From Escherichia phage vB_EcoM-pEK20, in sequence record MZ868638.1: DNA of 64,000 bases. One strand, written 5' to 3'. Positions 3,177 to 61,500 of this stretch are shown here, in pieces. A program made the position numbers and the translations under genes. Position 1 is the stretch's first letter, and the number at the start of each line of letters is the position of its first letter. The notes beneath the pieces were generated by a model, which made no database searches, was not told the origin of the DNA, and was given only the letters and a program-made list of their open reading frames with translations.

Positions 3177-3199
3177 GGGGACTTCGGTCCCCTTTTTTC
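3177..3199 (+). terminator. intrinsic terminator hairpin GGGGAC-UUCG-GUCCCC plus U-run
   Basis: perfect 6-bp GC stem with UUCG tetraloop followed by TTTTTT, directly after the rIIB stop. Confidence 0.8.
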
Positions 3200-4005: not shown

Positions 4006-4035
4006 GTTTACAACTAAGTAGGACTATGATATAGT
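4006..4035 (+). promoter_or_regulatory. early sigma70-type promoter (GTTTAC -35, TGnTATAGT extended -10)
   Basis: GTTTAC at 4006-4011, 18-bp spacer, TG + TATAGT at 4027-4035; 8-bp inverted repeat TAGGACTA/TAGTCCTA flanks the -10. Confidence 0.7.
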
Positions 4036-4061
4036 AGTCCTATCTAAAAGAGGATAACATT

Positions 4062-4517: not shown

Positions 4518-4547
4518 GTTTACATCAAGGTAGGATTATGGTATAGT
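4518..4547 (+). promoter_or_regulatory. early promoter
   Basis: GTTTAC 4518-4523, 18-bp spacer, TGgTATAGT; near-copy of the promoter at 4006. Confidence 0.7.
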
Positions 4548-4575
4548 AGTCCTACTGAAACATGAGGAACACAAA

Positions 4576-4778: not shown

Positions 4779-4808
4779 TTGTACAAACTCTTGAGAGCAG
4801 AGTATAAT
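4779..4808 (+). promoter_or_regulatory. early promoter (TTGTAC -35 variant, TATAAT -10)
   Basis: 18-bp spacer; -10 sits inside 7-bp inverted repeat GAGAGCA/TGCTCTC; nearly identical element at 32819. Confidence 0.6.
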
Positions 4809-4852
4809 GCTCTCATGGATTACAAAAACATTAATCAATTGAGGAAATTAGC

Positions 4853-7069: not shown

Positions 7070-7092
7070 GGAACCTTCGGGTTCCTTTTTGT
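7068..7092 (+). terminator. intrinsic terminator GGAACC-UUCG-GGUUCC plus U-run
   Basis: hairpin 7070-7085 followed by TTTTT. Confidence 0.8.
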
Positions 7093-7111
7093 GCATTTTT
7101 CTCACAAAACA

Positions 7112-7140
7112 GTTTACATGTGCTTCAAACATGATATTAT
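7112..7140 (+). promoter_or_regulatory. early promoter upstream of motA
   Basis: GTTTAC 7112-7117, 17-bp spacer, TGaTATTAT. Confidence 0.65.
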
Positions 7141-7177: not shown

Positions 7178-7810
7178 ATGTCTAAAGTTACTTACATCAT
7201 CAAAGCTTCTGAAAACGCTCTGAATGAAAAAACTGCCGCAATAATGGTTTATATCATTAAGAACAACTTCACCACTGCTGCCAATGTCCGTGAAGCTCTA
7301 GAAGCGGAATACAATGCATCGGTTGTTAACTCTAACATTGGCGTATTGATTAAGAAAGGTTTAGTCGAAAAATCTGGTGATGGACTTATAGCAACAGGCG
7401 AAGCAATGGATATTATCCAAAAAGCTGCAGACCTCTTTGCCCAAGAAAATGCTCCAGAACTTCTTCAGAAACGTAACACTAGAAAAGCACGTGGAGTTAC
7501 TCCTGAAATGCATGAATTAGCAAACTTTGTTTTTGAAAATATTAAAGATAAAGTTGAAGTTAAAGAAATTGGTGAAAACCGTAGTAACTTGGAAGTTCGA
7601 TTTGCAAAACGAGTTCTAGGTATTCGTCAGATCGAAATTCGTCGAAATGGTTCTCTTAGAATCTTTGCATACAACATGTCAGAAACCGAATCAAAGCTGT
7701 TTACTTCTCTTGAAAATGATGTTAAGATTAAGATCGGTGGTAAATATACTTACATTGACTTCCCTAATGTGTCCAAAGAAATCATTACCCTTGTAACTAA
7801 CGTACTGTGA
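7178..7810 (+). CDS. motA: MotA middle-transcription activator
   Basis: start MSKVTYIIKAS matches T4 MotA N-terminus as recalled; 210 aa; the ORF-track start at 7091 is an upstream extension. Confidence 0.9.
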   Translation: MSKVTYIIKASENALNEKTAAIMVYIIKNNFTTAANVREALEAEYNASVVNSNIGVLIKKGLVEKSGDGLIATGEAMDIIQKAADLFAQENAPELLQKRNTRKARGVTPEMHELANFVFENIKDKVEVKEIGENRSNLEVRFAKRVLGIRQIEIRRNGSLRIFAYNMSETESKLFTSLENDVKIKIGGKYTYIDFPNVSKEIITLVTNVL

Positions 7811-11209: not shown

Positions 11210-14200
11210 TTATGCTAAACGAACGATATAGTTAAAAGCAACGTTTTTAACAGTGTTTTCTGTATTTCCTGTGGCATTTACAGTTATTGTATGTCCATGG
11301 GAACCAATTGCAACAGTATGAGAATGAGCACCAATACCTACCGAATGGGTATGAGCACCAATACCCACAGTATGAGCATGGTTACCAGTAGCGCTAGTAG
11401 TTCCTGACCAACTATGGGTATGGTTACCTTCTGTTGACGACTTTGCAATATATTGGCTTGTACCAGGCACGACACCGTTGCTTAGGCCAAAACCATCAAC
11501 CTGAGACCCACTAATTAGAGTAGCCCCATTAGGAAATATCCCGGTCGGTTGGTTACTAGGTCCTCTTGGGCCTGTCTGTGAGTGCTGGTGGTTACCAGCG
11601 GCACTAGTATTACCACTCACTGTATGGTTATGGTTACCAGTGGTATTACTGGTCTTAGTACCATAATCAAAGCTTGAAGTCGTTTTGCTACCGTAATCAA
11701 AACTAGAAGTGGTCTTAGTACCTAAATCTGTGCTTGATGCACTTGCACTATGGCTATGTGACTTAACACCGTCTTCTTCTGTACTTAATACAGCACGCCC
11801 AGATGGTTTACCCTTGATAGTTTGACCACGCATATCAGGCAGAGCGCCGGAAGGATACACCGCAGCTAACTTAGGATACAAGTCAGTATCAAACGTCTGG
11901 CCTTCCATGATGGCATAACCTTCAGGAGGTGTATCAGTAGGCCAAGGAATCGGAGCACCAATTGGGTAACTCGAGACAATATCCGTCTTAAGGTTATTTA
12001 TTGTGGTATTCAAGTTAGCAAAATTACCAGAACCACCAGTGATATTACCATCAGTACCAATACGAACATTACCAGCGCCTAATTTACCAGGAGAATAAAA
12101 ATCACCGTTTTTATTAAATTCCCATCCAAGATCCTTTATAACAGCACCAGTAGAAACGCCGTCACCACCTTCGTGATAATGAACTCTAAAGTTACCACCA
12201 TTAATTAAAGTACCAATAGAATAGCAACTATTATTTTGAACGTATCTTTGTTTCACAATAGGAACATAAGTGCTTGTATCTGTTCTATCAATATTCATAT
12301 AGAACGGAGCACGAACGTTTTCATTATTTTGTGAAGCAAAAGAACCGGCTCCAGCAGGTCGTGCAGTATCAGTACATTCAGCGTCGATATATGCCGATTG
12401 TCCTAATTGCATACGGTAATTAGGAGAAATGCGACTATGACTAGTTATAACAACAAGTTTATTATCATTATCAACGGTCACCATATTACCGCCAGCGCCA
12501 TCATCACCTAACGTAACAGAATGGCGCATTTGAACCATACCGTTATTAAGGCTGATACTAAGCGGACGAAGATTACTTATTCCACCACTTTCACCAGCAT
12601 CTTTAGGAGTCGGGATAATATGTAATGATGCTTCTGAACGACGGAAAATAGCACCATATTCAGCATTCCAAATTCTTAATGCATCTGCTGTTCCACCAAA
12701 TTTAGCTTGACCGTTTACAGACAATCCATTATTAGCAACTAAACTAGATTCCGTAACAATCGAGCCGGAAGCAGTAATACCACCGGAAGTTAATAAAGCA
12801 CCGCTGACACGGAATTGAATGGCACCAACAGTTGAACCCGAAGCAGGTGTTACACGTTGAGAATAAAAATGGTATCCTTGTCCATCAGCTACTTCAAAAA
12901 CTGTTTCACGGTAACGATCGCCAGATGCGTTAAATGAATTACCCCACACTTTAACTGTAACAGGGTTTTTGTTTTGACCTGCGCGAGTACCACTGTTCCA
13001 GTATATACTTCTAGTACCATCTGCAGCCGTCGGGGCGTTAAACTGGAATCCCTGATTATCAGGTCCATCAATAATTATGCCTTTATTAAGACGAAAAGCT
13101 AATGTAGAATCAATATTACCTGTTGCAGCGTTAAAGCTAATACTGTTAGCACCGGTTACCAATTTCAAAATACCGGGGTTAATTTCCATACCTTGTTGGG
13201 TATTGATATTCATCTGACCTGTACCACGGAAATAGTGGTTCATTTTACCGCCAGCATTGTACCCGATATGTGTTTGACCGTCTCCAGCATTGTTATTATC
13301 AGCTTGTGTTTGAACTGATAAAAGAGCGGCGTTGGTTCCAGGCATAATCCAAGTTGTGCCTTGGTCCTCGGAACGACCAAATATACCTTTACGAGTACTA
13401 CGGAAACTGTCAGGAGTAATAGAAGCGACAGATTTACCTGAACCAACTAAATCATAAACACCGGTTTTTTTGTATGATAAACCCGTCCCGTTATCGCCTA
13501 GAGCTAAATAAGCACCGAATCCTAAAGCGCCACCATTACCGTAATCGCTTGACGGATATCCTTCAGTCACGGTCCCGATGGCTACACTATTGCGGACGAT
13601 CATTCGGCCGTCATTACGAATACCATATAGTTTAAATAATGGTGTATTACCAGTCCACCAAGAAACTTCATCAGCCAGGCCAGTTTGAGCTGTACAAATT
13701 TCATGGTAAATAGTTCCGCCCGATTTAGCACGAACTTTACGAAGATAGTTTACACCATTTGTTTCTCCGGTTCCAGGATAAACATAGTTAACCAAAGATT
13801 GAGAATCATATTGCCCAAAGGCTTTAGAATCATGATTAATTAAATTAACACTAATAGATGGTGTACTAATAGAAGTTAAAGCAGTTAATTTGCGTGCCTG
13901 GAAAATACCGCCATCAGTAGAAATGAAATGAAATTCTGAATTTTGAGCCCCTGCTGCGGTTCCTTGGCGAACACGCATTGTAATTACGCCTTCATTTTCA
14001 GACTGCGGTTTTGAATATAAAACACCTCTCTCTGATCCATCTGTATTTTCAAACCAAAGATGGGCATTGGAAGTATCATTTGTTGCTCTTGTGTAAAATG
14101 ACCCTCGCATAGATCTAAAAACTAAGGCGGATACGCCTTCAGTAGAACCAATAGGTCCATTTACGGTCATTCCACCGGTTTGTACATAATCGCCGTTTAA

Positions 14201-16279: not shown

Positions 16280-19200
16280 TTATTCAATCCACTCGAATTT
16301 AACAGATTTATTCACAGGGTCTGGAATAATGCGGACATTACCAATCCTTAAGAAATCCCTTATTGTCAAGTTTCCGATTGTTGCATTATCAGAAGGTAAA
16401 GCACCAATATCAGAAGGTTGAGGAGGGTTTCCACCATCAAATACCTGAACAAAACTTGACCAAGAATTTTTAGTTTTCTGCCATGTACGAGTCCAACGGG
16501 TTGTACGTGCTTCTGGAGTTGTTGGATAAGTAATCCAATCTTGGTAAAGTGAATCAAGTGTATTACCAAACTGAGTCAATGTACCAGGAGATTTAACTTC
16601 TTCGCCACGTTCTAAGTATGGAAGCCCAGTCACTTCATTAGTTTTTTCAACCATTTTAAAATAACCAGGGAATTGGTTATAAGTGGCTGAATCGTTAATA
16701 TCGATTGACCAGAATCCGACTGTATCAGCAGTAGGAGCACGAGTGTATAAATCAGCAGTTTTAGAACCCTGAGAACGAATTCTCGAGTTAACAGTTAAAC
16801 CACCTGAATTTATAGTAGCACCTTTGGCAATGATTAAGCCTTCACCAATCGTTACTTGGCCGGATGCATTATTAATAGCTAAAGGACGTAATCCATTAAA
16901 TCCGCCAGTCTGATCACCTGATGCAGTAAGCATAAAATAGGTATTAGCAGCATCATTACGAATAAAGAATCCGTAATCACCACTAATTGCTCTGAAAGCA
17001 TTTGCAGACTTACTAATGAATTCGCCATTAGCAGTAACTGAACGACCGAATGTTGCAACGCCATTCACATTCATCAAACCGGAAGCATTAATGTTTATTG
17101 GCATTACAGTACCATTAATGCTAAACGCTATATTCCCATCTTTATTACGTTGAGAATAAAAATGATTAGACGTTTCATCACCAACTTCAAATACAGTAGA
17201 ACGTGTTGTATCTGATCCGCCACCAAACTGATTTCCCCAAACTCTGATAGACATCGTCTGTGCTGGGTTGGTTCCAGTTTGAGGTCCTTTCTCAAAAATA
17301 AGACGAGTTGCCGTTCCAGTATTAGAAATAGTTAATGTACTATTTGCCGAAACTGAACCACCAAACGTAGCAGTACTAGATGATACAAGAGGGGCACTCA
17401 GATTCGTTTGTTGGGTTAAGGTTAGTGAACCATTAACCGTCTGTGCAATGTCCCTACGAATGAACTGAGATGAATCTAGACCATCTAATAAATTTGCGTC
17501 AGCAGCTTTTGCTTTTAATGGCAAGTAATTTGCTAATACACGGTTTAATTCATACGGTGATACTGCATAGCTATTTTTCTCGTATAGCTCTAAGTTTTGT
17601 GTAGAACCGACTGTATCATTACCAACGAATGTAATAGAACCGGATGAAGTTTTAACGAATCCGCGAATTGCTGTAGTAGCAGCCCATGTTGGTTCGTTCT
17701 GGACAATCCATTTTAAATTCTTAGGAGATACAGCAGTGTTCGCTGACGTTCCAGTCACAGTTTCAGCCTGAGTAGCAACCTTGATTACACCTTCAGACGT
17801 TTCAGTGGACTTAGTCCCTAAAAGCTTTTTAGGAGTAATAAGAACATCATCTAAAGTTCCTGCATTAGATTCTGCCTGGGTCGCTACGCGAAGTGTACCA
17901 CGTTGTGTTTCATTTGCTTTAGAAATATCAAGAGTATAATGGTTCCACAAGGTTCCTTCTTCAATAAGTCCGGAATCAGAATTAACACTGGTACGGTCAG
18001 AAGAATCAAAATGAGTTTTAATTTTCAGTGGAGTTGAGATACGAGTATCATCAGTTCCAGTATCAAATTCAACTTGCGTAGCAATTTCGGCTATGCCGGA
18101 TAATCCTTCCGTAGCTCTCCTATCATTTAACGTCTTAGGCGTTACTGCACGTGTATAATCAGTCCCAGCATTAGTTTCTGCTTGCGTAGCAATTTCAATT
18201 AAACCAATACGTCCATCAGTAGAAGTTTTCTTATGTAGTGTTTCAGGAGTTACTACAGCGTGAGAATAACCTGCTTGTGATTGACCAGCAATTACTTCAC
18301 TATCAACAGCTAAAATTACTGCACCTTGTTGAGCATAAGTTGCTTTATATTGGTCAAGGGCTTTAGGAGAAATAGTTAAATTATTTACGGTTTTATTATA
18401 AACGTTAGTGCCTGCGGCCCCACGAGTTTCAGCAGGAGTAGCAGAAGTAGTTGATACATATTTAACTATACCAGATAGTGTTTCAGAACCCTGACGTGCC
18501 TGCAATTTCTTAGGTGTAATAATCGTTGTGTCATCAAGACCAGCATCGGTTTCAGACTGAGTAGCAATTTCAGCAAGACCGCGACGAGTTTCAGTTGCTG
18601 TACGCTCATTTAGTTTTTTAGGCGTAACAATAGTATCGTCCACAAATGATGCTGTGGAATTCTGGTTAACTTGTGCTGTTGTAGCAATTTTGGCGATACC
18701 ACGTCGAGTTTCAGTTGCTGTACGATTTGCCAACGTTTCAGGAGTAATAGCAACTTCTTTAGCTGGAGTATTCTCTAAATCAACATTTGCTTGCGCTTGA
18801 GTAGCAAGAGCAATAACACCTAAACGAGCTCGTGTAGCATCAGTTCCAGCATCAACACGTTCTACAGTTGGGACGTTTTGTTGAACAACCCAATAACGTG
18901 TACCAGCAACGGTGTCTTCGATATACGATAATTCTAATACAGGAACATATGAAGTAGTGCCATTGAATTCTAGTTCAGTAACAGAGACCCATTGAGCATC
19001 AGGTGGATATTCAGAACGTTTAGGGAACTGAAGCAACGCAACAGAAGAAGCAATTGTATCACCTTCGGCAGCTTTAATTTTTACTGTTTGGCCTTTACGC
19101 ATGTAGTTCATTGAAATTTTAACAGTGTCACCACTCAAAATTCCGGTAGGTAGCGTAAGATTAATAGTTCCGGTTGTAGCGTTATTTGTGCCAAAAATAA

Positions 19201-20155
19201 GAACTTCTTCATTTGGACGAATATTTGAATCCGCACGGATAATACGAAGACGCGGTTTCTGGTCGCCTTCCCATATACGCCATAAACTATTTGCAGCATC
19301 AAAAACAAAAAACGCGTCAGAGTCATTTCTGCCTTCGGCAATATGAGTCCCGACTTCACCAATAGACGTTGTATCATCAAATGTTTTAACAATTGTATGA
19401 TACAGTGGGTTTAATTTATCTAAATCGACTAGGCTGATTATATCACCATTGTTAGCATTACGTGGAAGTGTAATGTTGATTGGTGCTGCACTAGTAAAAC
19501 GACGAACGATAAAATCATTTGCTTGTGCTTGATATGGTGCCGCAGGTGTAACAGTGATTGATTCTTTACCGTAATCAATGATATACATCTGCCACAAACG
19601 ATTACTAAACACAAACACTAGTTGTGAACGTGGTCGCGTCATTAAAACTGTACGAACTTGTTCACCTCTAAAGTTTAAAATACTCTGCACAGACGCGTTA
19701 ATCTGTACTTTAACTGTCCCGGTTCTTCCACCAATATCAGCCAAAACAACAGTATCACCATCAACCGGCGCATTTGGCAACGTGAAAACCATATCATTGC
19801 CGGCACCAGTGTTAACCGAAATCGATTCACCTGAAGAAAGTTGATAAGTCCCAGAAGCGACAGTTATCCATTGTGCATCGGTACGAACTGCACGCCATTG
19901 TAAAAGGTTAAATGCCCCGGAAGGAGACACGATATCATTTATTGCTTGATATAAACGGTTGTCATAAAGAACAACAAATCCTTTGTTATATCCACGCGTA
20001 GAATCATATACTTGAACGGTGTTTTCTTGTACCAGGAAGTCAACGTTTACGCCATCAGTACCTACTGTACGGTCGGCTAATGCTACGTTAACAATCTTGT
20101 CGCCACCGGCGTCCAGACCATCTTCGGCTCTGAACTTACGTTTGATGTCGGCCAT
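16280..20155 (-). CDS. 34: gp34 long tail fibre proximal subunit
   Basis: 1291 aa (T4 1289 aa); internal repeated ATETRRG(I/L)A(K/E)IAT motifs. Confidence 0.93.
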   Translation of the reverse strand: MADIKRKFRAEDGLDAGGDKIVNVALADRTVGTDGVNVDFLVQENTVQVYDSTRGYNKGFVVLYDNRLYQAINDIVSPSGAFNLLQWRAVRTDAQWITVASGTYQLSSGESISVNTGAGNDMVFTLPNAPVDGDTVVLADIGGRTGTVKVQINASVQSILNFRGEQVRTVLMTRPRSQLVFVFSNRLWQMYIIDYGKESITVTPAAPYQAQANDFIVRRFTSAAPINITLPRNANNGDIISLVDLDKLNPLYHTIVKTFDDTTSIGEVGTHIAEGRNDSDAFFVFDAANSLWRIWEGDQKPRLRIIRADSNIRPNEEVLIFGTNNATTGTINLTLPTGILSGDTVKISMNYMRKGQTVKIKAAEGDTIASSVALLQFPKRSEYPPDAQWVSVTELEFNGTTSYVPVLELSYIEDTVAGTRYWVVQQNVPTVERVDAGTDATRARLGVIALATQAQANVDLENTPAKEVAITPETLANRTATETRRGIAKIATTAQVNQNSTASFVDDTIVTPKKLNERTATETRRGLAEIATQSETDAGLDDTTIITPKKLQARQGSETLSGIVKYVSTTSATPAETRGAAGTNVYNKTVNNLTISPKALDQYKATYAQQGAVILAVDSEVIAGQSQAGYSHAVVTPETLHKKTSTDGRIGLIEIATQAETNAGTDYTRAVTPKTLNDRRATEGLSGIAEIATQVEFDTGTDDTRISTPLKIKTHFDSSDRTSVNSDSGLIEEGTLWNHYTLDISKANETQRGTLRVATQAESNAGTLDDVLITPKKLLGTKSTETSEGVIKVATQAETVTGTSANTAVSPKNLKWIVQNEPTWAATTAIRGFVKTSSGSITFVGNDTVGSTQNLELYEKNSYAVSPYELNRVLANYLPLKAKAADANLLDGLDSSQFIRRDIAQTVNGSLTLTQQTNLSAPLVSSSTATFGGSVSANSTLTISNTGTATRLIFEKGPQTGTNPAQTMSIRVWGNQFGGGSDTTRSTVFEVGDETSNHFYSQRNKDGNIAFSINGTVMPININASGLMNVNGVATFGRSVTANGEFISKSANAFRAISGDYGFFIRNDAANTYFMLTASGDQTGGFNGLRPLAINNASGQVTIGEGLIIAKGATINSGGLTVNSRIRSQGSKTADLYTRAPTADTVGFWSIDINDSATYNQFPGYFKMVEKTNEVTGLPYLERGEEVKSPGTLTQFGNTLDSLYQDWITYPTTPEARTTRWTRTWQKTKNSWSSFVQVFDGGNPPQPSDIGALPSDNATIGNLTIRDFLRIGNVRIIPDPVNKSVKFEWIE

Positions 20156-20196: not shown

Positions 20197-20226
20197 GTTT
20201 ACGCTTTCAAATGAGTATGTTACTAT
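20197..20226 (+). promoter_or_regulatory. early promoter for rnh
   Basis: GTTTAC 20197-20202, 18-bp spacer, TACTAT. Confidence 0.6.
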
Positions 20227-20258
20227 AGTCAAGTTGACTAACTGAACAAGAGGTTCAT

Positions 20259-21769: not shown

Positions 21770-22419
21770 TTAAAATACGCATGCCTCCTGATGGAGAACG
21801 TTATATTAACGGAAAATCGGTATACAAACTATACTTGATGTGCAAACAACATTTTAATGGTCGGTATGACGTAATCAAATATAACTGGTGCATGCGTGTT
21901 TCGGATAATGCGTATCAAAAACGCCGAGATAAATATTTCTTTGAAAAACTAGCAGAGAAATATAAATTGAAGGAACTCACCTTGATATTCATAAGCAACT
22001 TAGTTGCTAACCAAGACGCATGGATTGGTGAGATATCAGACGCTGATGCATTAGTTTTCTATAGGGAATATATTGGACGTCTCAAACAAGCCAAGGAGAC
22101 GTTTGCTGAAGATGTACGTAACATCTACTATTTCGGTAAGAAAGTTGAAGTTAGCGCGCTTCAAGAGATATTTGATTATAATAATAAAGTTCAGTCGAGC
22201 TACATATTTAAATTGCTACAAAGCAATATAATTTCATTTGAAACCTTCTTGTTGTTAGATTCATTTTTGAATATTATAGATAAGCACGACGAACTCACCG
22301 ATAACTTAGTCTGGCAAAATTATTCTACCAAATTAAAGGCATATCGAAAAATACTTCAAATCGATGGAAATGCTGCTAAGAAATTGTTCATAGAAACAAT
22401 CAAATCATGTAAGTATTAA
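21766..22419 (+). CDS. 59: gp59 helicase loader
   Basis: 217 aa; MIKIRMPPDGERYINGKSVYKLYLMCKQH... matches T4 gp59 as recalled. Confidence 0.93.
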   Translation: MIKIRMPPDGERYINGKSVYKLYLMCKQHFNGRYDVIKYNWCMRVSDNAYQKRRDKYFFEKLAEKYKLKELTLIFISNLVANQDAWIGEISDADALVFYREYIGRLKQAKETFAEDVRNIYYFGKKVEVSALQEIFDYNNKVQSSYIFKLLQSNIISFETFLLLDSFLNIIDKHDELTDNLVWQNYSTKLKAYRKILQIDGNAAKKLFIETIKSCKY

Positions 22420-23450: not shown

Positions 23451-23472
23451 GGGAGACTTCGGTCTCCCTTTT
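23451..23472 (+). terminator. intrinsic terminator after gene 32
   Basis: GGGAGAC-UUCG-GUCUCCC plus UUUUG. Confidence 0.85.
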
Positions 23473-23498
23473 GAGTATCTGTAAATTGCCGAAAAAGT

Positions 23499-23528
23499 TG
23501 TTTACTTCTTCCCTGGATGTGTTAGTAT
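23499..23528 (+). promoter_or_regulatory. early promoter
   Basis: GTTTAC, 18-bp spacer, TGtTAGTAT. Confidence 0.6.
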
Positions 23529-23557: not shown

Positions 23558-23962
23558 ATGGAAATCGGAAAATCTTATATCATTAACCCTTTATTTAAAG
23601 ATGACTTTGTTCAAGAAGCACCACACAATAACGCTAAGATGTTAAAATTGATTGAACTCCACGGGCCTAGTTTTGTTGTAAACGGAATGGAACCTGATTA
23701 TGATAGCGATACGTCAAACGTAGTAAGTGTAACTATGGAAGATGGTACTGTATGTTCTGCCGGTGGTGAAATTGAAACTTATTTTGAGATTTATCCTGAC
23801 GAGTTCAAATACTTTATTGAGTACTTTACTGAGGTAACTTTAGAAAAGCCTCAACCTACTAACGAAGGTATAACTTTAGGTGTAACAAAAATCCATTGTA
23901 TCGTAGATGAAACCAACGTCGACGAAATCATCAAACTTTTGCAAAAAACTTTTAAAAAGTAG
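23558..23962 (+). CDS. hypothetical protein (frd.3 position)
   Basis: 134 aa ORF, GAGGAAA RBS. Confidence 0.6.
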   Translation: MEIGKSYIINPLFKDDFVQEAPHNNAKMLKLIELHGPSFVVNGMEPDYDSDTSNVVSVTMEDGTVCSAGGEIETYFEIYPDEFKYFIEYFTEVTLEKPQPTNEGITLGVTKIHCIVDETNVDEIIKLLQKTFKK

Positions 23963-23991
23963 TGTACAATCAGATAGGGTTATGTTATAGT
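23963..23991 (+). promoter_or_regulatory. early promoter (GTGTAC -35 variant)
   Basis: 17-bp spacer, TGtTATAGT; flanked by inverted repeat GATAGGG/CCCTATC. Confidence 0.55.
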
Positions 23992-24026
23992 AGCCCTATC
24001 AAATCAAAAGTGAAGCGGAGAATAAA

Positions 24027-29819: not shown

Positions 29820-30230
29820 ATGAAAGATATTGCCGCCGAATATTCCTTTATTAAATATACAGAATTGGAGCTATTAGAAGATGCAACAATTAAAACAGTT
29901 GATGTCCCTAATAAGAAAAATGTCATATACGCTATTGCTATAGATGACGAACTTGTGTATATTGGTAAAACCAAGAATTTAAAGAAACGCATTAACTATT
30001 ATCGAACAGCCATAAATCGAAAAGACCAGACTTCAGATTCAAGAAAATCACTTATGATTTTGGATGCCTTAATGCAAGGCAAAAAGGTTGAATTCTGGGC
30101 CCGCCAATGTTTTGACCTTTCGGTCACCAACGAACTTGGTTCAATGACCATCGCAACAATGGACCTTGAAGAACCGCTTTTTATCAAAAAGTTCAACCCG
30201 CCTTGGAATATCCAACATAAGAAAAAGTAG
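29820..30230 (+). CDS. denA: endonuclease II (GIY-YIG family)
   Basis: 136 aa as T4 EndoII; GIY-YIG-like VIYAIAIDDELVYIGKT...R motif; position after nrdB. Confidence 0.85.
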   Translation: MKDIAAEYSFIKYTELELLEDATIKTVDVPNKKNVIYAIAIDDELVYIGKTKNLKKRINYYRTAINRKDQTSDSRKSLMILDALMQGKKVEFWARQCFDLSVTNELGSMTIATMDLEEPLFIKKFNPPWNIQHKKK

Positions 30231-30259
30231 TTTACATACCACAAGGATTGTGGTACAAT
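30230..30259 (+). promoter_or_regulatory. early promoter
   Basis: GTTTAC, 18-bp spacer, TGgTACAAT. Confidence 0.6.
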
Positions 30260-30277
30260 TTAAAAAAAACTAACTGA

Positions 30278-31411
<1,134 letters not shown>

Positions 31412-31413
31412 CG

Positions 31414-31443
31414 GTTTACAAACACCAAGGATGGTGATACTAT
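31414..31443 (+). promoter_or_regulatory. early promoter
   Basis: GTTTAC, 18-bp spacer, TGaTACTAT. Confidence 0.6.
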
Positions 31444-31472
31444 GGGTTTATCAACAACACGAGGAGAAAATT

Positions 31473-32604: not shown

Positions 32605-32819
32605 CTAAAGAACAACATGAATACATTAAAGGGCTTATCTATGAATCTGAAATGGCGGCTATGATTTATGGACGCCAGATTCAACGATTAGAATCTTTGC
32701 CTCCGACTAATGACCGCTTGTTAGTTCAGTCTCGTGCTAATCTGAAAAATGAATATCAGAATAAGTGGGCAGTAGCGACTAAAGCTCTTCACGAGTATAT
32801 TGAATCTTTAGTAAAATAG
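32595..32819 (+). CDS. hypothetical protein
   Basis: 74 aa ORF. Confidence 0.5.
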   Translation: MPMTKEQHEYIKGLIYESEMAAMIYGRQIQRLESLPPTNDRLLVQSRANLKNEYQNKWAVATKALHEYIESLVK

Positions 32820-32848
32820 TTTACAAACTCTCAGGAGCAGAGTATAAT
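32819..32848 (+). promoter_or_regulatory. early promoter
   Basis: GTTTAC, 18-bp spacer, TATAAT inside inverted repeat AGGAGCA/TGCTCCT. Confidence 0.65.
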
Positions 32849-32876
32849 GCTCCTATGGATAATTGAGGAAATCTAA

Positions 32877-33175
32877 ATGAAAACATTACTAGAGAATTAC
32901 ATCAAACGGTCTGATGAGTATATTGATATCTGTCGTGGAATGTCACTCGGCAATTATGACAAAGATGCAGCAAAGGCACTAGATGAAGCAGGTAAAGCTC
33001 TTCGTAAAGCTGCTAAAGAAAAAGGGTTGGATTTGCAACAACTCAAAAGTCATATGATTAAATTTATTTCTTCAAACGTTAGAAGTACGTCAATTAATAA
33101 AAACGTTGCTGAAATTAATAAAGACCGGCGCGAGCATAACATTCGTATTCTTGAAATTTTCTTAGGAATAAAATA

Positions 33176-34944: not shown

Positions 34945-34974
34945 GTTTACAACATGGTGGAGTTGTGATACTAT
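34945..34974 (+). promoter_or_regulatory. early promoter
   Basis: GTTTAC, 18-bp spacer, TGaTACTAT; flanked by imperfect inverted repeat GGTGGAGTT/AACTCTACC. Confidence 0.6.
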
Positions 34975-35002
34975 AACTCTACCAACAAATGAGGAAATAG
35001 AA

Positions 35003-37231: not shown

Positions 37232-37233
37232 TA

Positions 37234-37259
37234 TGCTTTACGAATAGTATGGTATTATT
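37234..37259 (+). promoter_or_regulatory. MotA-dependent middle promoter for gene 31
   Basis: MotA box TGCTTTA at 37234-37240, 13-bp spacer, TATTAT -10. Confidence 0.6.
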
Positions 37260-38262: not shown

Positions 38263-38442
38263 ATGGCAAAACAAGCTAAAGCAAAGAAAGCAGTTGAAAA
38301 GAAAGTTGATGGTACCTCTAAACGCGCTGGATACAAGCGTGGGTCGAACTCTCGTATTAATCAAACAGTTGAGAAGATCATGCGCAGAGCACGTGCAGTT
38401 CTTCGAGATGATGCTTCTCGTTTTGGAAAGGTTGTTGCATAA
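38263..38442 (+). CDS. small basic protein (59 aa), uncertain
   Basis: Lys/Arg-rich ORF ending 5 nt before a strong terminator; weak RBS. Confidence 0.35.
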   Translation: MAKQAKAKKAVEKKVDGTSKRAGYKRGSNSRINQTVEKIMRRARAVLRDDASRFGKVVA

Positions 38443-38447
38443 TTTTA

Positions 38448-38472
38448 GGGAGACTTCGGTCTCCCTTTTGTG
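38448..38472 (+). terminator. intrinsic terminator
   Basis: GGGAGAC-UUCG-GUCUCCC plus UUUUG. Confidence 0.8.
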
Positions 38473-38502
38473 CGTTTAGGGCAGAAAAAGTTTAAAAAAG
38501 AT

Positions 38503-38531
38503 GTTTACTCTCCTGTAGGATGTGTTACTAT
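38503..38531 (+). promoter_or_regulatory. early promoter
   Basis: GTTTAC, 17-bp spacer, TGtTACTAT. Confidence 0.6.
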
Positions 38532-38572
38532 AGACTTGTACCACCTAATCAATAAAACAATCGGAGAATAAA

Positions 38573-38941
38573 ATGAAAATCAATCTGAACTCATACATCA
38601 AATGTAAAGACCACGACGGTTATAAAGCTATCGAAATTAAAGAATTCCAGTGGATGTTATACAAAGAGCAATTTGAGTTCGTAGGTTGTATGACCCCTGA
38701 AGGTCCTTCAGATGATTTCTCTTGGAAAATTGTGTTAGCAAACTTTTTCACAGGTGACACATACGAATTAAAAACTATTATTACCGGTAAAATTCGTTCA
38801 GAAACATATGTTGACGAAGAAACTGGTTACTCTGAAGATGTTACATGGTATCAAAATGGACGCATTACAGCAGATAACCTGATCGAAAAAATGAAAGCCA
38901 AAGGTGTTTTAAATTTAGACAATTGGATTAAAGTTGCATAA
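38573..38941 (+). CDS. hypothetical protein (gene 30 upstream cluster)
   Basis: 122 aa ORF; GGAGAATAAAATG initiation region. Confidence 0.6.
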   Translation: MKINLNSYIKCKDHDGYKAIEIKEFQWMLYKEQFEFVGCMTPEGPSDDFSWKIVLANFFTGDTYELKTIITGKIRSETYVDEETGYSEDVTWYQNGRITADNLIEKMKAKGVLNLDNWIKVA

Positions 38942-38945
38942 AACA

Positions 38946-38974
38946 GTTTACTTTGGTACAGGTTATGTTATTAT
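38946..38974 (+). promoter_or_regulatory. early promoter
   Basis: GTTTAC, 17-bp spacer, TGtTATTAT; perfect 9-bp inverted repeat GGTACAGGT/ACCTGTACC (38955-38963 and 38977-38985) flanks the -10. Confidence 0.6.
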
Positions 38975-39015
38975 AGACCTGTACCAACAAACAACTTAAA
39001 CATCTGGAGAATAAA

Positions 39016-39381
39016 ATGAACTACACCAACTTCGAACGCAAATATGTTTCTAACGGTATCGCTGGTTCTATCGATATGGTTTGTTTGTGGAAGCATAAAA
39101 ATGGTTCAGTATGTGAAATTGAGCAGTGCATGACTCCTAATTATGTTTATATGCGATTTGAAAATGGCATCACGGTTTCAATCACGATGGAAGGTTCAAA
39201 TTTTAAAATTGCATTAGATGATGATTTCCGTCAGCGTGATTTAGGTACTCATCCTTGCTGGAACGGTGTTAATCGTAAACTTCTGGTTAAAACTTGGATT
39301 CGTCATATCCTGAGTAACCGAGCTAAACATGAACATCTCGAAGCAATCTTTGATGTAGTTCTTAACGAATTTGATATCTAA
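39016..39381 (+). CDS. hypothetical protein
   Basis: 121 aa ORF; initiation region identical to that of the 38573 ORF. Confidence 0.6.
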   Translation: MNYTNFERKYVSNGIAGSIDMVCLWKHKNGSVCEIEQCMTPNYVYMRFENGITVSITMEGSNFKIALDDDFRQRDLGTHPCWNGVNRKLLVKTWIRHILSNRAKHEHLEAIFDVVLNEFDI

Positions 39382-42030: not shown

Positions 42031-43520
42031 TTTTAGATATTTTAAACCAAATAGCTGCGATCGGTTCTACTAAAACAAAACAAGAAATCCTTAAGAAAAA
42101 TAAGGACAACAAATTACTTGAACGTGTGTATCGTTTAACATATGCACGTGGTATCCAGTATTATATTAAGAAATGGCCAGGACCAGGTGAAAGGTCTCAA
42201 GCGTATGGTCTTCTTGAATTAGATGACATGTTGGATTTTATTGAGTTCACATTAGCCACTCGTAAACTCACTGGTAATGCTGCAATTAAAGAGCTCATGG
42301 GTTATATCGCTGACGGTAAACCTGATGATGTAGAAGTCCTTCGTCGTGTAATGATGCGCGACCTTGAAGTAGGTGCTTCAGTGTCTATCGCGAATAAGGT
42401 GTGGCCTGGACTTATTCAATTGCAACCACAGATGTTAGCATCTGCATATGATGAGAAATTGATTACTAAAAATATTAAATGGCCAGCATTTGCCCAATTA
42501 AAAGCAGACGGTGCTCGTTGTTTCGCTGAAGTTCGCGATGATGGTGTTCAATTCTTTTCTCGTGCCGGTAACGAATACCATGGTCTTACTCTATTAGCGG
42601 ATGAACTAATGGAAATGACTAAAGAAGCTCGTGAAAGACACCCTAATGGGGTTTTAATCGACGGTGAATTAGTTTATCATTCATTTGATATTAAAAAGGC
42701 TGTGAGCTCAGGAAATGACCTGTCGTTCTTATTTGGTGATAATGAAGAATCCGAAGAAGTACAAGTTGCAGACCGTAGCACTTCAAATGGTTTAGCAAAT
42801 AAATCTCTTCAAGGGACTATTTCTCCTAAAGAAGCGGAAGGTATGGTTCTTCAAGCCTGGGACTATGTTCCTTTAGATGAAGTCTATTCTGATGGCAAAA
42901 TTAAAGGTCAGAAATACGATGTTCGTTTTGCTGCTCTTGAAAATATGGCTGAAGGCTTTAAGCGAATTGAGCCAATTGAAAATCAGTTAGTTCGTAATCT
43001 TGACGAAGCTAAAGTGGTTTATAAAAAATATGTTGACCAAGGTCTTGAAGGTATTATCCTTAAAAACCGTGATTCATACTGGGAAAACAAACGCTCTAAG
43101 AACCTAATTAAATTTAAAGAAGTTATTGATATCGCTTTAGAAGTTGTAGGATACTATGAACACTCTAAAGACCCTAACAAATTAGGTGGTGTCGAACTCG
43201 TATCACGTTGTCGTCGTATTACAACCGATTGTGGTTCAGGGTTTAAAGATACAACTCATAAAACAGTTGACGGTGTAAAGGTTCTTATTCCTTTAGACGA
43301 GCGTCATGATTTGGACCGTGAACGATTAATGGCTGAAGCTCGTGAAGGTAAATTGATTGGACGTATTGCTGATTGTGAATGCAATGGTTGGGTTCATTCT
43401 AAAGGACGTGAAGGCACTGTAGGTATTTTCCTTCCAATTATTAAAGGGTTCCGTTTTGATAAAACAGAAGCGGATTCATTTGAAGACGTATTTGGACCGT
43501 GGTCCCAGACAGGTTTATAA
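42027..43520 (+). CDS. 30: ATP-dependent DNA ligase
   Basis: 497 aa; MILDILNQIAAIGSTKTKQEILKKNKDNKLLERVYRLTY... matches T4 DNA ligase; KADGAR adenylation motif. Confidence 0.95.
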   Translation: MILDILNQIAAIGSTKTKQEILKKNKDNKLLERVYRLTYARGIQYYIKKWPGPGERSQAYGLLELDDMLDFIEFTLATRKLTGNAAIKELMGYIADGKPDDVEVLRRVMMRDLEVGASVSIANKVWPGLIQLQPQMLASAYDEKLITKNIKWPAFAQLKADGARCFAEVRDDGVQFFSRAGNEYHGLTLLADELMEMTKEARERHPNGVLIDGELVYHSFDIKKAVSSGNDLSFLFGDNEESEEVQVADRSTSNGLANKSLQGTISPKEAEGMVLQAWDYVPLDEVYSDGKIKGQKYDVRFAALENMAEGFKRIEPIENQLVRNLDEAKVVYKKYVDQGLEGIILKNRDSYWENKRSKNLIKFKEVIDIALEVVGYYEHSKDPNKLGGVELVSRCRRITTDCGSGFKDTTHKTVDGVKVLIPLDERHDLDRERLMAEAREGKLIGRIADCECNGWVHSKGREGTVGIFLPIIKGFRFDKTEADSFEDVFGPWSQTGL

Positions 43521-43763: not shown

Positions 43764-45851
43764 ATGTCTGAACAATTAAATGAAGTGTTTGAATCTGAAG
43801 GCAGTCTTCCTGTCGTCAATTTGAACCCTAAAGCTAAAGTTCCACAAGTCTGGAAAATTGGTGATATCGATACAAACATCGTAGTTCGTTTATTCTCTTA
43901 CCTTTCTGAAGGCGATGCTGTAAAACAAGTTAAACTTGGCGACAAATATGCTCATGTTGTTATTATGAGTCTGTCTGAAAAGGGTAATCTCGCTGAATTG
44001 AAAAATGGCCTTGGTCCTGCTCCTATTGATGCAATCAACACTATTTTCAATACAGTATATGAACAGGTTAAAGCTCTTCGTATGGATGCAGTTCTGTTCC
44101 GGTTCCCTACCAAGAAATTGAAAGGACGTGGACAACAGCTTCAAACTCTTCTTGCTCGTTTAGTTTCTACTAAAACTGGCGGTCGTTTTAAAGTATTGTC
44201 AGCAATGTATCAATTCACAGGTAAACACACCTATGTGATGATGGTTCGTAAAAATGCCAACATTGAAGATATTAAAGGCATCCCTAACATTAACACAGAG
44301 TTGTACACGAAAGTAGATTCTGATGTTGGCGAAGTTTATGTGAGTAAAAAGACTGGTGAAAAGGTCACTAAAGAAACGTCTATCGCTGGTTCTATTGCTG
44401 CTGTAGAAGAAAAACGTAAAGATAAGCCTGTTATTGCTCGTACTAAAATTTCTCGTCGTGCTATTGCAGCAAGTCAATCTTTAGAAGCTGACCGCCAAGA
44501 AGGTGAGTTATTCCAGAAATATGAAAATTCTGCTAAAGAAGTTAGTGGCCCAGCTACAGCCGAATTACTTCCTGAAGCATATGAAATCGTACTAGCCCAA
44601 GCATCATCCACAGCAAAAGGCACTTTAGTTGCTGATATCGAAAATAAGATTTATAATCGTATTGATGAATCCTTTAAATTTGCTGATGAAGTTTCTTATG
44701 GTAGTGTTATTAAGCCATCTTTAGAAAAGTTTGCTAAGAAAATTAAAACTGAAAAAACAACATCTGTTAAAGCATTAGCTGCTTTTGTTGAAGCTGCAAA
44801 TGAAATTGCAGACTCTATTAAAGACGAATGGTTTGAAGATTTTAGACGTGATAATTTCCAACTGCCTGACGACGTTTTAGCTGAAGTATCTGAAAGAACT
44901 TGGAAACAACGTAAATCAGCGTTCTTGTCTAATGTGATGTATACTTATGCCAGAGAATCGGCTAGAGGCACCTTTAATATAACAATGAATCGGGACCCTA
45001 AACAATACTCTGTTGCTGAAAAACGAGCTATTCGTGAATATGCCTCTTCTGCGTATATCGATATCAATAATATGTTGTTAGGTCGTTATAAACCAGATTT
45101 TTACGATGTTGCAGATGAAGATGAAGTTAAACGCGCTATTGATGGTCTTGATTCGGCGTTTTTAAATGGAGACCGTTTACCTGAAGGACTAACGTTATAT
45201 AGAGCTCAGTCTATCAGAATGCCTATTTACGAAGCAATGGTTAAAAATAAGGTATTCTACTTCAGAAACTATGTTTCCACTTCACTAGCTCCTATTATTT
45301 TCGGTGGGTTTAAAGAGAACGTTGCCCTTGGACTTGCTCCTGAAGAAGTTCGCAAAGAGCTTAACATTGACAATAATGACGAAGGTGTTACTATTTCTCC
45401 GAGTCAAGTAAGAACAGCTATGCATGCACCAGAACAAATCCGTGTTAACGTTGGATGGGCTATTGATGGCGCCCATAAAGTTAACGTGATTTATCCAGGA
45501 CAGTTGAGTAATCACCCTAATGAGCAAGAAATTATTTTGCCTAGAGGCATTCTCTTGCAGATAAATAAAATTACAGATGCGTCATCTGACACTGGTGCAG
45601 GTTTAGAATCCAACCTTAAATTTATTCAAGCTGAAGTCATGTCCTCAGACCAGTTAGATGAAGCTGTCATTTATGATGGTGATGTTCTCATGGAAACAGG
45701 CGAGGTGGTTGCTATGACTGGTGAAATCGAATCAGATGAGCCGGTATCGTTCTCCTCGTTTGTAGAAAAAACTAGTGCTCCTAAAGGATTGAAATTGTTA
45801 GCATCTTTAATGGATTTAGAATCAGTTCCGTTTAAATTTGTCCAAGGATAG
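43764..45851 (+). CDS. alt: Alt ADP-ribosyltransferase (packaged, modifies RNA polymerase alpha)
   Basis: 695 aa (T4 Alt 682 aa); C-terminal half matches T4 Alt as recalled (LYRAQ...FVSTSL...EQEIILPRG ART motifs; ends PFKFVQG). Confidence 0.85.
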   Translation: MSEQLNEVFESEGSLPVVNLNPKAKVPQVWKIGDIDTNIVVRLFSYLSEGDAVKQVKLGDKYAHVVIMSLSEKGNLAELKNGLGPAPIDAINTIFNTVYEQVKALRMDAVLFRFPTKKLKGRGQQLQTLLARLVSTKTGGRFKVLSAMYQFTGKHTYVMMVRKNANIEDIKGIPNINTELYTKVDSDVGEVYVSKKTGEKVTKETSIAGSIAAVEEKRKDKPVIARTKISRRAIAASQSLEADRQEGELFQKYENSAKEVSGPATAELLPEAYEIVLAQASSTAKGTLVADIENKIYNRIDESFKFADEVSYGSVIKPSLEKFAKKIKTEKTTSVKALAAFVEAANEIADSIKDEWFEDFRRDNFQLPDDVLAEVSERTWKQRKSAFLSNVMYTYARESARGTFNITMNRDPKQYSVAEKRAIREYASSAYIDINNMLLGRYKPDFYDVADEDEVKRAIDGLDSAFLNGDRLPEGLTLYRAQSIRMPIYEAMVKNKVFYFRNYVSTSLAPIIFGGFKENVALGLAPEEVRKELNIDNNDEGVTISPSQVRTAMHAPEQIRVNVGWAIDGAHKVNVIYPGQLSNHPNEQEIILPRGILLQINKITDASSDTGAGLESNLKFIQAEVMSSDQLDEAVIYDGDVLMETGEVVAMTGEIESDEPVSFSSFVEKTSAPKGLKLLASLMDLESVPFKFVQG

Positions 45852-45880
45852 TTTACAAACACATGGATGTGTGATACTAT
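45851..45880 (+). promoter_or_regulatory. early promoter
   Basis: GTTTAC, 18-bp spacer, TGaTACTAT. Confidence 0.6.
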
Positions 45881-45909
45881 CATCCCATCAACAACATGAG
45901 GAAAACGTT

Positions 45910-58548: not shown

Positions 58549-58749
58549 TTGATTATGAGAGTTGAAGTTGAAGTTTATACATTACATGAGGCGGGATTTT
58601 CATTCGTAGAAATTGCTCAAAAAATCGGTTTACAACCTAAAGAAGTTGGATTACTATGGACTAAAGCCGAGACAGCTCGGTCAAAGTTTAAAGCAAAAGA
58701 AAAAGTTGTATACCGTAAACGTTTGATTAACAAAAAGGTGAAGAAATGA
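58549..58749 (+). CDS. small putative helix-turn-helix protein
   Basis: 66 aa; segment FSFVEIAQKIGLQPKEVGLLWTKA resembles an HTH; basic C-terminus. Confidence 0.45.
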   Translation: MIMRVEVEVYTLHEAGFSFVEIAQKIGLQPKEVGLLWTKAETARSKFKAKEKVVYRKRLINKKVKK

Positions 58750-58997: not shown

Positions 58998-58999
58998 TA

Positions 59000-59025
59000 T
59001 GCTTTACATTTTTTGATGGTATAAT
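59000..59025 (+). promoter_or_regulatory. MotA-dependent middle promoter upstream of rnlB
   Basis: perfect MotA box TGCTTTA 59000-59006, 13-bp spacer, TATAAT 59020-59025. Confidence 0.6.
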
Positions 59026-60116: not shown

Positions 60117-60147
60117 GAAAAAAGGGACCGTAAGGTCCCTTTTTTTT
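60117..60147. terminator. bidirectional terminator between convergent rnlB and gene 24
   Basis: GGGACC-GUAA-GGUCCC flanked by A-run upstream and T-run downstream. Confidence 0.85.
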
Positions 60148-61429
60148 ATTCATCAATGATAATTTTTGGTAGCTTAACACCGAGTAAAACAGACAAGTCT
60201 GAACGTCCTGCCATTTTATCCATGTCCCCGCCATCAATTATTCTCGCTTCTTTTTCATCTTTTGCTACTGTGTAAGGATTTGCTGATAAGGCATATCTAA
60301 CCAATAATCCGATAGACGGTTGCAAGCTTTCTGGATCAACTACAACTTTAAATGCACCGACATGTTCCGGGTCATCTAAATCCACTCCTTCAGTGTATGG
60401 AGCATAAAAGATGGACCCTACAATTTCTTTTTCGCCGAGATTTTCTACAACACCCACAATAACATAATCTAACGGGCTGTTGGTATCGCAGTAAAGAGGT
60501 AATCCATTTGCCAAGAATCCATAAGCATTTTGTGAAAGATACTTGTCATCTTCTGGCTTATGTTTTAACCAACCAGAAGCAGCAAGAATAGCAGCTGCAC
60601 GAGCTGAGGCTACACAAAACGTTGCAGTATAAGTTGTCTCTTTTTGAATGTGTGATACCATTTCACACACCATTCGATATAATGAACGACCTGCTTCTGG
60701 AGCTGACGCATAGCTCAAGTCAATAAATCCAGTGTCAGTAATTCCAGTAACTTTATAACGTTTCGATACAGTAATTAAAGACTGAAGAATATCTTTATTA
60801 ATTTCATCTGCCATTTCAGTAGCAAGCAAATCTTCTAAGAAGTTAGGGGCATCAAATCCATTCGCTTCCAAATCTTGCGCTAATTCAACCGTGAGACCAG
60901 TTTTAAGTTTACGAGATTTGACTGAAGTTTGCCATTTATTAATCTGGAATCTTGCATCAGAAATTTCGCTATCAGAGCTTTCAAATTTGCTTGTTACCGC
61001 TGCATCTGAAAATAACCGTACCTTTAAATGAACGACTGCAATCTGAAGAGCTAATTCTAGATCACTTTCTTGAATATCTGCAAATGGTGTATCTTCTAAC
61101 ACTTTATAGACGATATTATTATATTTGAAAAAATCGCCTTTATTTAGTGTGACTTTTGATTCTTCTGTGAGCTCAGTAATTTTTTCTCGGTCTACGTATC
61201 CAGCTTCACCCGCATAAGTAGCGCCAGTTTTAAATGTGAATTCGTTATCTGGGTTAAGATATTTGATACCATAAAAAGCAGCAACAGGTTGATTAGTTCT
61301 TTGTGTTGCTACAATGTCAGAATATATTAATTTAGTCGTAGCGCGAGTCAAAGCAACGAGATTTGGGCGACCAATTGAGTTGCTAGTAGACGTTGTAGAT
61401 TCACGCAATAATTTTTGGATTTTACTCAT
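60146..61429 (-). CDS. 24: gp24 head vertex protein
   Basis: 427 aa, equal to T4 gp24; gp23-like fold. Confidence 0.92.
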   Translation of the reverse strand: MSKIQKLLRESTTSTSNSIGRPNLVALTRATTKLIYSDIVATQRTNQPVAAFYGIKYLNPDNEFTFKTGATYAGEAGYVDREKITELTEESKVTLNKGDFFKYNNIVYKVLEDTPFADIQESDLELALQIAVVHLKVRLFSDAAVTSKFESSDSEISDARFQINKWQTSVKSRKLKTGLTVELAQDLEANGFDAPNFLEDLLATEMADEINKDILQSLITVSKRYKVTGITDTGFIDLSYASAPEAGRSLYRMVCEMVSHIQKETTYTATFCVASARAAAILAASGWLKHKPEDDKYLSQNAYGFLANGLPLYCDTNSPLDYVIVGVVENLGEKEIVGSIFYAPYTEGVDLDDPEHVGAFKVVVDPESLQPSIGLLVRYALSANPYTVAKDEKEARIIDGGDMDKMAGRSDLSVLLGVKLPKIIIDE

Positions 61430-61470: not shown

Positions 61471-61500
61471 GTTTACAACGTATTTGGTATGTGATACTAT
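61471..61500 (+). promoter_or_regulatory. early promoter
   Basis: GTTTAC, 18-bp spacer, TGaTACTAT. Confidence 0.6.

Follow-up and report, generated by a model that had tools for sequence, protein, structure and literature searches.

One question raised by the focal element of this locus is why the -10 hexamer of a phage early promoter should be enclosed by an inverted repeat whose arms, at other promoters of the same genome, differ in sequence while remaining complementary. A sequence-only reading of the window, by which we mean the whole 64,000-nt stretch of DNA analysed, had attributed this pattern to selection for a structure, either cruciform DNA or a hairpin in read-through RNA, rather than for one protein-binding sequence. 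The answer depends on how far the symmetry exceeds that imposed by the promoter consensus itself, and on the nucleic acid in which it would act.

The 6-kb stretch around the focal element is 96-98% identical to the RB69-group coliphages EP02SG, SSE1, JS09 and HX01, rIIA lies at the window start, and the window matches rIIA and approximately the final 62 kb of RB69, read in reverse complement. Because of this identity and collinearity the window can be assigned to a T4-like phage of the RB69 group (Mosigvirus). The early genes lie on the + strand and are transcribed by the host sigma-70 RNA polymerase. Their promoter motif was described in the sequence-only reading as GTTTAC-N17/18-TGnTAnnnT, and the motif is real, with 13 matches in the window to GTTTAC-N13-16-TGnTAnnnT, all 13 on the + strand, against 0.25 expected. 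The spacing does not hold as written: taken literally, with N17/18 placed before TGn (searched as N16-19), the motif has no match in the window, and 17 or 18 nt is the distance between the two hexamers. When the -35 was allowed one mismatch and a Shine-Dalgarno sequence, an ATG and an ORF had to follow downstream, 16-17 promoters were obtained, the 17 having -10 hexamers that start at 4030, 4542, 4803, 7135, 9646, 20221, 23523, 23986, 30254, 31438, 32843, 34969, 38526, 38969, 40056, 45875 and 61495. A-rich stretches occur upstream of the -35 hexamers, the ATG follows 32-47 nt past the -10, and the upstream stop codon lies -1 to 12 nt ahead of the -35. The focal element lies between the end of an upstream ORF at 38941 and a downstream ATG at 39016. 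The individual elements are collected in the table.

Table. Early promoters of the window discussed in the text, with their hairpins or preceding terminators (energies in kcal/mol; z relative to dinucleotide shuffles).
Feature	Span	Strand	-35	-10	Left arm or stem	Right arm	Fold or context
Focal promoter with hairpin	38946-38985	+	GTTTAC 38946-38951	TATTAT 38969-38974	GGTACAGGT 38955-38963 (helix extends to 38967)	ACCTGTACC 38977-38985	RNA fold -18.0, z -4.66, 0/200 shuffles as stable
Early promoter with hairpin	4006-4043	+	4006-4011	TATAGT 4030-4035	4018-4027 (holds TAGGACTA)	4034-4043 (holds TAGTCCTA)	-13.2, z -3.89
Early promoter with hairpin, paralogue of the 4006 element	4518-4556	+		4542-4547	GTAGGATTA 4529-4539	TAGTCCTAC 4546-4556	one U.G pair; sense -13.6, antisense -7.3
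Promoter with weaker -35 and hairpin	4779-4819	+	TTGTAC	TATAAT 4803-4808	4789-4799 (GAGAGCA core)	4808-4819 (TGCTCTC core)	-13.9, z -3.40
Promoter with hairpin	23962-24000	+	GTGTAC	TATAGT 23986-23991	GATAGGGTT 23973-23983 (GATAGGG)	AGCCCTATC 23990-24000 (CCCTATC)	one U.G pair; -16.3, z -4.98; antisense -11.1
Early promoter with hairpin	32819-32859	+		TATAAT 32843-32848	AGGAGCA 32833-32839	TGCTCCT 32848-32854	three outer pairs besides; -12.2, z -2.60
Early promoter with hairpin	34945-34984	+		TACTAT 34969-34974	34955-34967 (starts GGTGGAGTT)	34972-34984 (ends AACTCTACC)	13 pairs including G.U; sense -16.9 (z -4.43), antisense -8.1 (z -0.89)
Early promoter, weak alternatives	45851-45885	+		45875-45880	spacer hairpin CACAtggaTGTG 45860-45871, or GGATG 45865-45869	CATCC 45881-45885 (pairs with GGATG around the -10)	-5 to -6, no better than chimeras
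Early promoter, spacer-only hairpin	30230-30259	+			CCACAaggatTGTGG 30239-30253		-8.3
Early promoter, spacer-only hairpin	31414-31443	+			CACCAaggaTGGTG 31423-31436		-5.5
Hairpin-less early promoter	38448-38531	+	at 38503	38526-38531			canonical UUCG-loop terminator GGGAGACTTCGGTCTCCCTTTTG 38448-38470 ahead
Hairpin-less early promoter	23451-23528	+	at 23500	23523-23528			terminator identical to GGGAGACTTCGGTCTCCCTTTTG at 23451-23473
Hairpin-less early promoter	7070-7140	+	at 7112	7135-7140			terminator GGAACCTTCGGGTTCCTTTTTG 7070-7091 ahead
Hairpin-less early promoter	61471-61500	+					behind divergent gene 60146-61429 (- strand)
Hairpin-less early promoter	20197-20226	+					likewise behind a divergent gene

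Seven of these 17 promoters (~40%; -10 at 4030, 4542, 4803, 23986, 32843, 34969 and 38969) have the -10 enclosed by a hairpin of 7-13 bp, with folding energies of -12.2 to -18 kcal/mol and z of -2.45 to -4.98 against dinucleotide shuffles, the hexamer lying in or at the loop. Three others (30254, 31438, 45875) carry short stems confined to the spacer, and the remaining seven show no hairpin above background. The dyads quoted in the sequence-only reading are indeed present, namely GGTACAGGT/ACCTGTACC, TAGGACTA/TAGTCCTA, GAGAGCA/TGCTCTC (within 4792-4814), AGGAGCA/TGCTCCT (32833-32854) and GATAGGG/CCCTATC (within 23973-24000), as are the two that it called imperfect, GGTGGAGTT/AACTCTACC at 34955-34984 with one G.T and the weak GGATG/CATCC at 45865-45885; likewise the promoters at 23500 (given there as 23499), 38503 and 61471 lack a dyad, as it had stated. 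To these we add a further hairpin at 4529-4556 (GTAGGATTA/TAGTCCTAC), the palindromic nature of the -10 core, the absence of a dyad from ~60% of the early promoters, and the identity of the element with a published kind.

The element is of the PeSL (promoter-early stem-loop) kind of T4-type phages. PeSL cassettes were described in RB49 and phi1 (Arbiol et al. 2010, PMC2839356), the accessible text reporting polyG/polyC arms with G-T pairs marked and a stem-loop 'overlapping the -10 box', and proposing a terminator or attenuator role; one RB49 stem-loop cut downstream lacZ expression to an extent comparable with rrnB T1 (PMC2839356). PeSLs were later extended to PST/T4, as TTTACW-N17-TAYWAT with AGNA-loop-TCNT stems, and to nt-1/KVP40 (Comeau et al. 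2014, PMC4122927, in its accessible part). A forerunner is Repoila et al. 1994, who, as cited in PMC2839356, found comparable stem-loops, richer in AT, on early promoters of T4 at the internal-protein loci of T-even phages; the RB69 internal-protein loci carry several TAGGACTAT/ATAGTCCTA copies in the same place. Nolan et al. 2006 catalogued 57 RB69 early promoters and left symmetry unmentioned. The window elements share with PeSLs a layout that begins right behind the upstream stop codon with an AT-rich region and runs through the early promoter and stem-loop to the Shine-Dalgarno sequence and start codon, a stem-loop that mostly overlaps the -10 or sits in the spacer, a G-rich 5' arm and C-rich 3' arm with G-T pairs, arms (AGGA...TCCT) that fit the PST/T4 motif AGNA-loop-TCNT, and a position adjoining gene-cassette breakpoints. 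The promoter at 30230 belongs to the 'between -35 and -10' PeSL subclass, and that at 31414 is similar. There are also differences. The RB69-group (Mosigvirus) phages are absent from the analyses in the accessible text of Arbiol 2010 and Comeau 2014; the window stems are AT-richer than the polyG/polyC stems of RB49, including the G/C-rich one that was assayed with lacZ, and no U-tract follows them; and according to a figure legend in Comeau 2014 the stems of PST lie 'just upstream' of the promoter, while those of the window and of T4-like contigs surround the -10.

Complementarity in excess of the promoter consensus was assessed with chimeras, in which promoters were cut in the middle of the -10 and their left and right halves recombined between promoters, so that column composition is kept exactly. 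In the window the natives have a mean energy of -9.4 kcal/mol and the chimeras one of -5.4 kcal/mol, the native mean being reached by none of 20,000 derangements. The comparison was extended to RB69 (1-80 kb) and 99 IMG/VR loci of T4-like phages, 1.85 Mb with 467 promoters, 351 of them unique, in 167 families, a hairpin of -10 kcal/mol or below being counted as strong. With one representative for each of the 167 families, hairpins occur in 22% of natives and 2.2% of chimeras (0/5,000 permutations), and a smaller one-per-family run gave 20% and 2.3% (0/20,000). The dyads thus exceed the consensus expectation, the comparison by which the sequence-only reading had proposed to be judged, and its argument for selection on structure gains support. 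The 36 hairpin families all have different arms; in the 22 families of the commonest register the pairs from -17/-6 to -22/-1 are formed in 18-22 of the 22, with 3-5 pair types at each position, which bears out the claim that arm sequences differ while complementarity is kept. Compensatory or wobble changes preserve pairing among both paralogous and orthologous promoters, as in AGGAGCA/TGCTCCT and GAGAGCA/TGCTCTC, the cores of the paralogous 32819 and 4779 elements, which are separated by two compensatory pair changes, and as in GGTGGAGTT/AACTCTACC, GGTAGAGTT/AGCTCTACC and GGTAGGACT/AGTCCTACC. T4-proper contigs (lysozyme 161/164 identical to T4L) carry the same kind of -10-enclosing hairpin at 20 of 65 unique promoters. 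Arm complementarity exceeds the consensus expectation, and the pattern is real and non-random.

The genomic context of the hairpins bears on the nucleic acid in which they would act. Promoters were classed as co-directional when an ORF read in the same direction terminates no more than 40 nt from the -35 and no terminator lies between. Among the 167 families, strong hairpins occur in 34 of the 108 in this class, in none of the 26 behind a canonical terminator, and in 2 of the 33 with neither (Fisher p = 1.9e-4 and 5e-6), while about two-thirds of the promoters at co-directional junctions lack a strong hairpin. The window fits this rule: the promoters at 7135, 23523 and 38526 lie ~20-30 nt behind UUCG-loop terminators, those at 20221 and 61495 lie behind divergent genes and are therefore reached by no read-through RNA, and all five are hairpin-less. 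The mutual exclusion of hairpins and canonical terminators at promoters suggests that the two have equivalent roles. The mismatches point in the same direction. In helices with at least seven Watson-Crick pairs, single internal mismatches are G·T in 20 cases and A·C in 2 (p = 1e-4), and outside the conserved -16..-7 block in 13 and 2 (p = 0.007), where base composition predicts 0.96:1; the strict count is small, at 7 and 2, and the first 123 sequences gave 17 and 7 (strict 4 and 1), significance being reached only after 69 further loci were added. The sense strand also folds better than the antisense in 32 of 37 hairpin families. With the -16..-7 block removed and the outer arms taken alone, this energy difference disappears (29 and 20 families, not significant), and we give it no weight as evidence for RNA because it comes largely from that block. 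On the basis of gene context and the G·T bias, an RNA hairpin in read-through transcripts is favoured over a DNA cruciform; both structures had been named in the sequence-only reading.

We therefore regard the locus as a PeSL-type composite, in which a T4-type early promoter (A-rich UP region, GTTTAC, TGn, TAnnnT) would carry a built-in hairpin that, on balance, probably ends or protects the upstream transcript. The weakly constrained spacer (approximately -28 to -17) would have evolved complementarity to the C-rich segment between -6 and about +5, with the partial palindrome RTGnTAYWRT nucleating the helix. The promoter's own transcript, by analogy with T4 early promoters, would start ~7 nt after the -10, that is within the right arm, and hence would lack the left arm, so that both arms would be present only in read-through RNA. 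Such RNA, coming from a gene in the same direction whose end lies a few bases ahead of the -35, is predicted to fold in vivo into a hairpin of 7-15 bp with the -10 sequence in its loop. This hairpin could then act on the upstream transcript, defining or protecting its 3' end, whether through attenuation or pausing of RNA polymerase or as a block to 3' exonucleases, the same job as that which canonical UUCG-loop terminators ahead of promoters would do elsewhere in the genome. The dyads, the covariation of the arms, the dependence on context, the G·T bias and the lack of a U-tract are directly supported. We advance only tentatively the broader proposal that these elements make up a class of their own, one that forms 3' ends or insulates without a U-tract and is built from the extended -10 palindrome, in which the same ~40 nt would be a strong promoter in DNA and a barrier in RNA (through pausing, factor-assisted termination or an exonuclease stop), interchangeable with canonical terminators at the tight gene junctions of T-even phages. 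A likeness exists to the coupled or overlapping promoters and terminators of bacteria, in which, according to the accessible part of a preprint, initiation and termination signals of adjacent transcription units share one site (bioRxiv 10.64898/2026.08.19.745784).

An alternative is that the inverted repeat functions as DNA, extruding as a cruciform or hairpin that either serves as a preferred site of recombination or shuffling, as in the PeSL mini-circle model, or modulates promoter opening, the folding of RNA being incidental. Comparison of the window with its relatives gives 85 distinct breakpoints of indels or replacements, and 14 of them fall within 50 nt of early promoters, about five-fold more than the 3.3% expected; whole genes are exchanged between consecutive promoters, for example 30254/31438 and 38526/38969; and, in the accessible text of Arbiol 2010 (PMC2839356), a crossover was mapped within the loop of an RB49 stem-loop. 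Yet the breakpoints are equally frequent at hairpin-less promoters, so that the common promoter sequence suffices without the dyad, and the association is a property of the promoter block rather than of the stem. A preference for G·T over A·C would be unexpected where both strands must pair, and neither the need for an upstream co-directional gene nor the exclusion by terminators has a rationale at the level of DNA. We consider a DNA-level function unlikely.

The anchoring of the dyads on the promoter itself invites another explanation. The extended -10 consensus RTGnTAYWRT is a partial palindrome on its own, the inner pairs R-16·T-7, T-15·R-8 and G-14·T-9 being this sequence read against itself. 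If this palindrome nucleates the helix, the dyad axis should fall between -12 and -11, as it does in 22 of the 36 hairpin families. At fixed register the promoter consensus accounts for most of the inner pairing (-16/-7, -15/-8, -14/-9), and a column shuffle of the family representatives at fixed register was marginal (pairing 0.51 observed, 0.49 shuffled; 103/2000); because the consensus supplies the inner pairs and registers vary, such counting was replaced by the register-free chimera tests. The selected part is the outward extension of the palindromic nucleus, mostly a free G-rich spacer (-28 to -17) fitted to a C-rich segment, -6 to +5, that is more conserved. Templated (strand-switch) mutation is well known in T4, and the hairpins could in principle be its functionless by-product, a quasi-palindromic extended -10 having been perfected and extended outward. 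This would agree with the origin of the inner pairs in the consensus, with the fixed axis at -12/-11 in those 22 families, and with the coming and going of hairpins among close promoters that have one common right half. Templated correction, however, gives Watson-Crick pairs and no preference for G·T over A·C, and it leaves unexplained why hairpins are found at 34 of 108 bare junctions and at none of 26 promoters behind terminators; we hold such an origin to be improbable.

Likewise, the G-rich spacer and the C-rich discriminator and start region might each be selected for the kinetics of RNA polymerase, the complementarity being a coincidence of composition. The left arms contain 33% G and the right arms 31% C, most of the right arm follows the family consensus (AGACCTATC, AGTCCTATC), and C at -3..-1 was noted in RB69 promoters (Nolan 2006). 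Such tuning of the promoter is nevertheless quite improbable as the source of the dyads, given that chimeras of equal column composition form hairpins ten times less often.

The read-through hairpin that we favour has also to be distinguished from two better-known kinds. It resembles an intrinsic terminator in forming in nascent RNA just past a stop codon, but the real terminators of this genome are GC-rich UUCG-tetraloop hairpins followed by T4-6, whereas the promoter hairpins are AT-richer, have the -10 hexamer in the loop and lack a 3' U-tract, the 10 nt past the right arm being 53% A and 20% T, with a T-run in 2 of the 36 hairpin families. A generic terminator scan does not call the -10-enclosing hairpins. 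With no U-tract behind the right arm, E. coli RNA polymerase would not be expected to terminate there efficiently by the intrinsic route, and a classical intrinsic terminator is ruled out. The second kind is the hairpin of the T4 genes e, soc and I-TevI, which encloses a late promoter such that the long read-through RNA folds while the promoter's own RNA lacks the 5' arm (PMC3014915). This layout, a promoter inside a hairpin and an own transcript without the 5' arm, recurs here, and would allow a translation gate, in which read-through RNA hides the downstream ribosome-binding site and promoter-initiated RNA is translated. In T4 the hairpins sequester both the Shine-Dalgarno sequence and the AUG and the promoters are late; here the promoters are early and of sigma-70 type, 19-38 nt separate the end of the right arm from the ATG, and none of the seven window elements includes the Shine-Dalgarno sequence in its helix. 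Because the right arm stops that far short of the start codon, hiding of the ribosome-binding site in the manner of T4 e and soc is excluded, and a translation gate of any such form seems to us very doubtful. Finally, that the dyad symmetry centred on the promoter marks a palindromic operator for a dimeric DNA-binding regulator is hardly credible, because every outer arm position varies between promoters, leaving no half-site common to the sites, and an operator is accordingly ruled out. Over the whole window Rfam gave no match at gathering thresholds, and our literature search found no usable maps of transcript 3' ends for T4 or RB69.

Three features of the elements were not found in the accessible text of the PeSL papers: the exclusion by terminators in quantitative form, the G·T bias, and a dyad axis anchored by the palindrome of the extended -10 consensus, with no U-tract following. 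T-even phages place strong early promoters right against the preceding stop codon, and if the hairpin does end or protect the upstream RNA, one segment of ~40 nt would be both promoter and transcript boundary, which would explain how each small early gene cassette is expressed and exchanged as a self-contained module. For annotation, promoter-embedded dyads in T4-like genomes are to be read as PeSLs and not as operators.

Several further observations concern the terminators, cassettes and promoters of this genome. The 23-nt UUCG-tetraloop terminator GGGAGACTTCGGTCTCCCTTTTG occurs twice in identical form (23451-23473 and 38448-38470), each copy ~30 nt upstream of a hairpin-less early promoter, and a repeated cassette of this kind, terminator followed by promoter, would add a further subclass to the PeSLs; terminators with a similar UUCG loop occur at 3177, 7070, 43709 and 58462. 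At 30217-31461 and 38430-38985 the gene between consecutive early promoters (ORF 30287-31411 and ORF 38573-38941) is replaced in many related contigs by unrelated sequence of similar length, with breakpoints within the promoters, replacements that we interpret as cassette exchange of the sort envisaged in the PeSL shuffling model. Short stems confined to the spacer, with GGA in their loops (CCACAaggatTGTGG, CACCAaggaTGGTG, CACAtggaTGTG), recur at several early promoters of this genome and of its relatives, such as caccaaggacggtg and gcacaaggaagtgc, and are weak, at -5 to -8 kcal/mol.

Among the promoters, one family has TATAAT without TGn, an aaactcYY lead-in and a GGATwA...attGAGGAAAT leader after the hairpin, and is found at no fewer than four loci (4779-4850, 32819-32877 and, on the - strand, RB69 L031 with the -10 at 42477 and L032 with the -10 at 22031); its arms vary by compensatory changes while the leader is conserved. 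Many hairpin-less early promoters have a pyrimidine-rich start to the spacer after GTTTAC (ttcttccct, tctcctg, ttctcctct), in the window at 23506-23514 and 38509-38515 and in RB69 on the - strand in L032 (-10 at 11339 and 8101) and L031 (-10 at 7406), and these look like a second sub-family, distinct from the hairpin-bearing one. The 20197 promoter, in a divergent region beside the long tail-fibre gene (16280-20155, - strand), has a perfect palindrome, TAGTCAAgTTGACTA, at 20226-20240, just downstream of and overlapping its -10, an arrangement unlike that of the dyads which enclose the -10. The MotA-box-like sequence ATGCTTTAC occurs at 37233-37241 and 58999-59007, 11-13 nt upstream of TATTAT or TATAAT and in neither case with an enclosing dyad; both sites are probably T4-type middle promoters. 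At 58628-58690 a promoter-like GTTTAC-N18-TACTAT inside ORFs is followed by the hairpin GCCGAGacaGCTCGG, which on the - strand reads GACCGAGctgtCTCGGCTTT and is terminator-like, and which may be a bidirectional transcript boundary.
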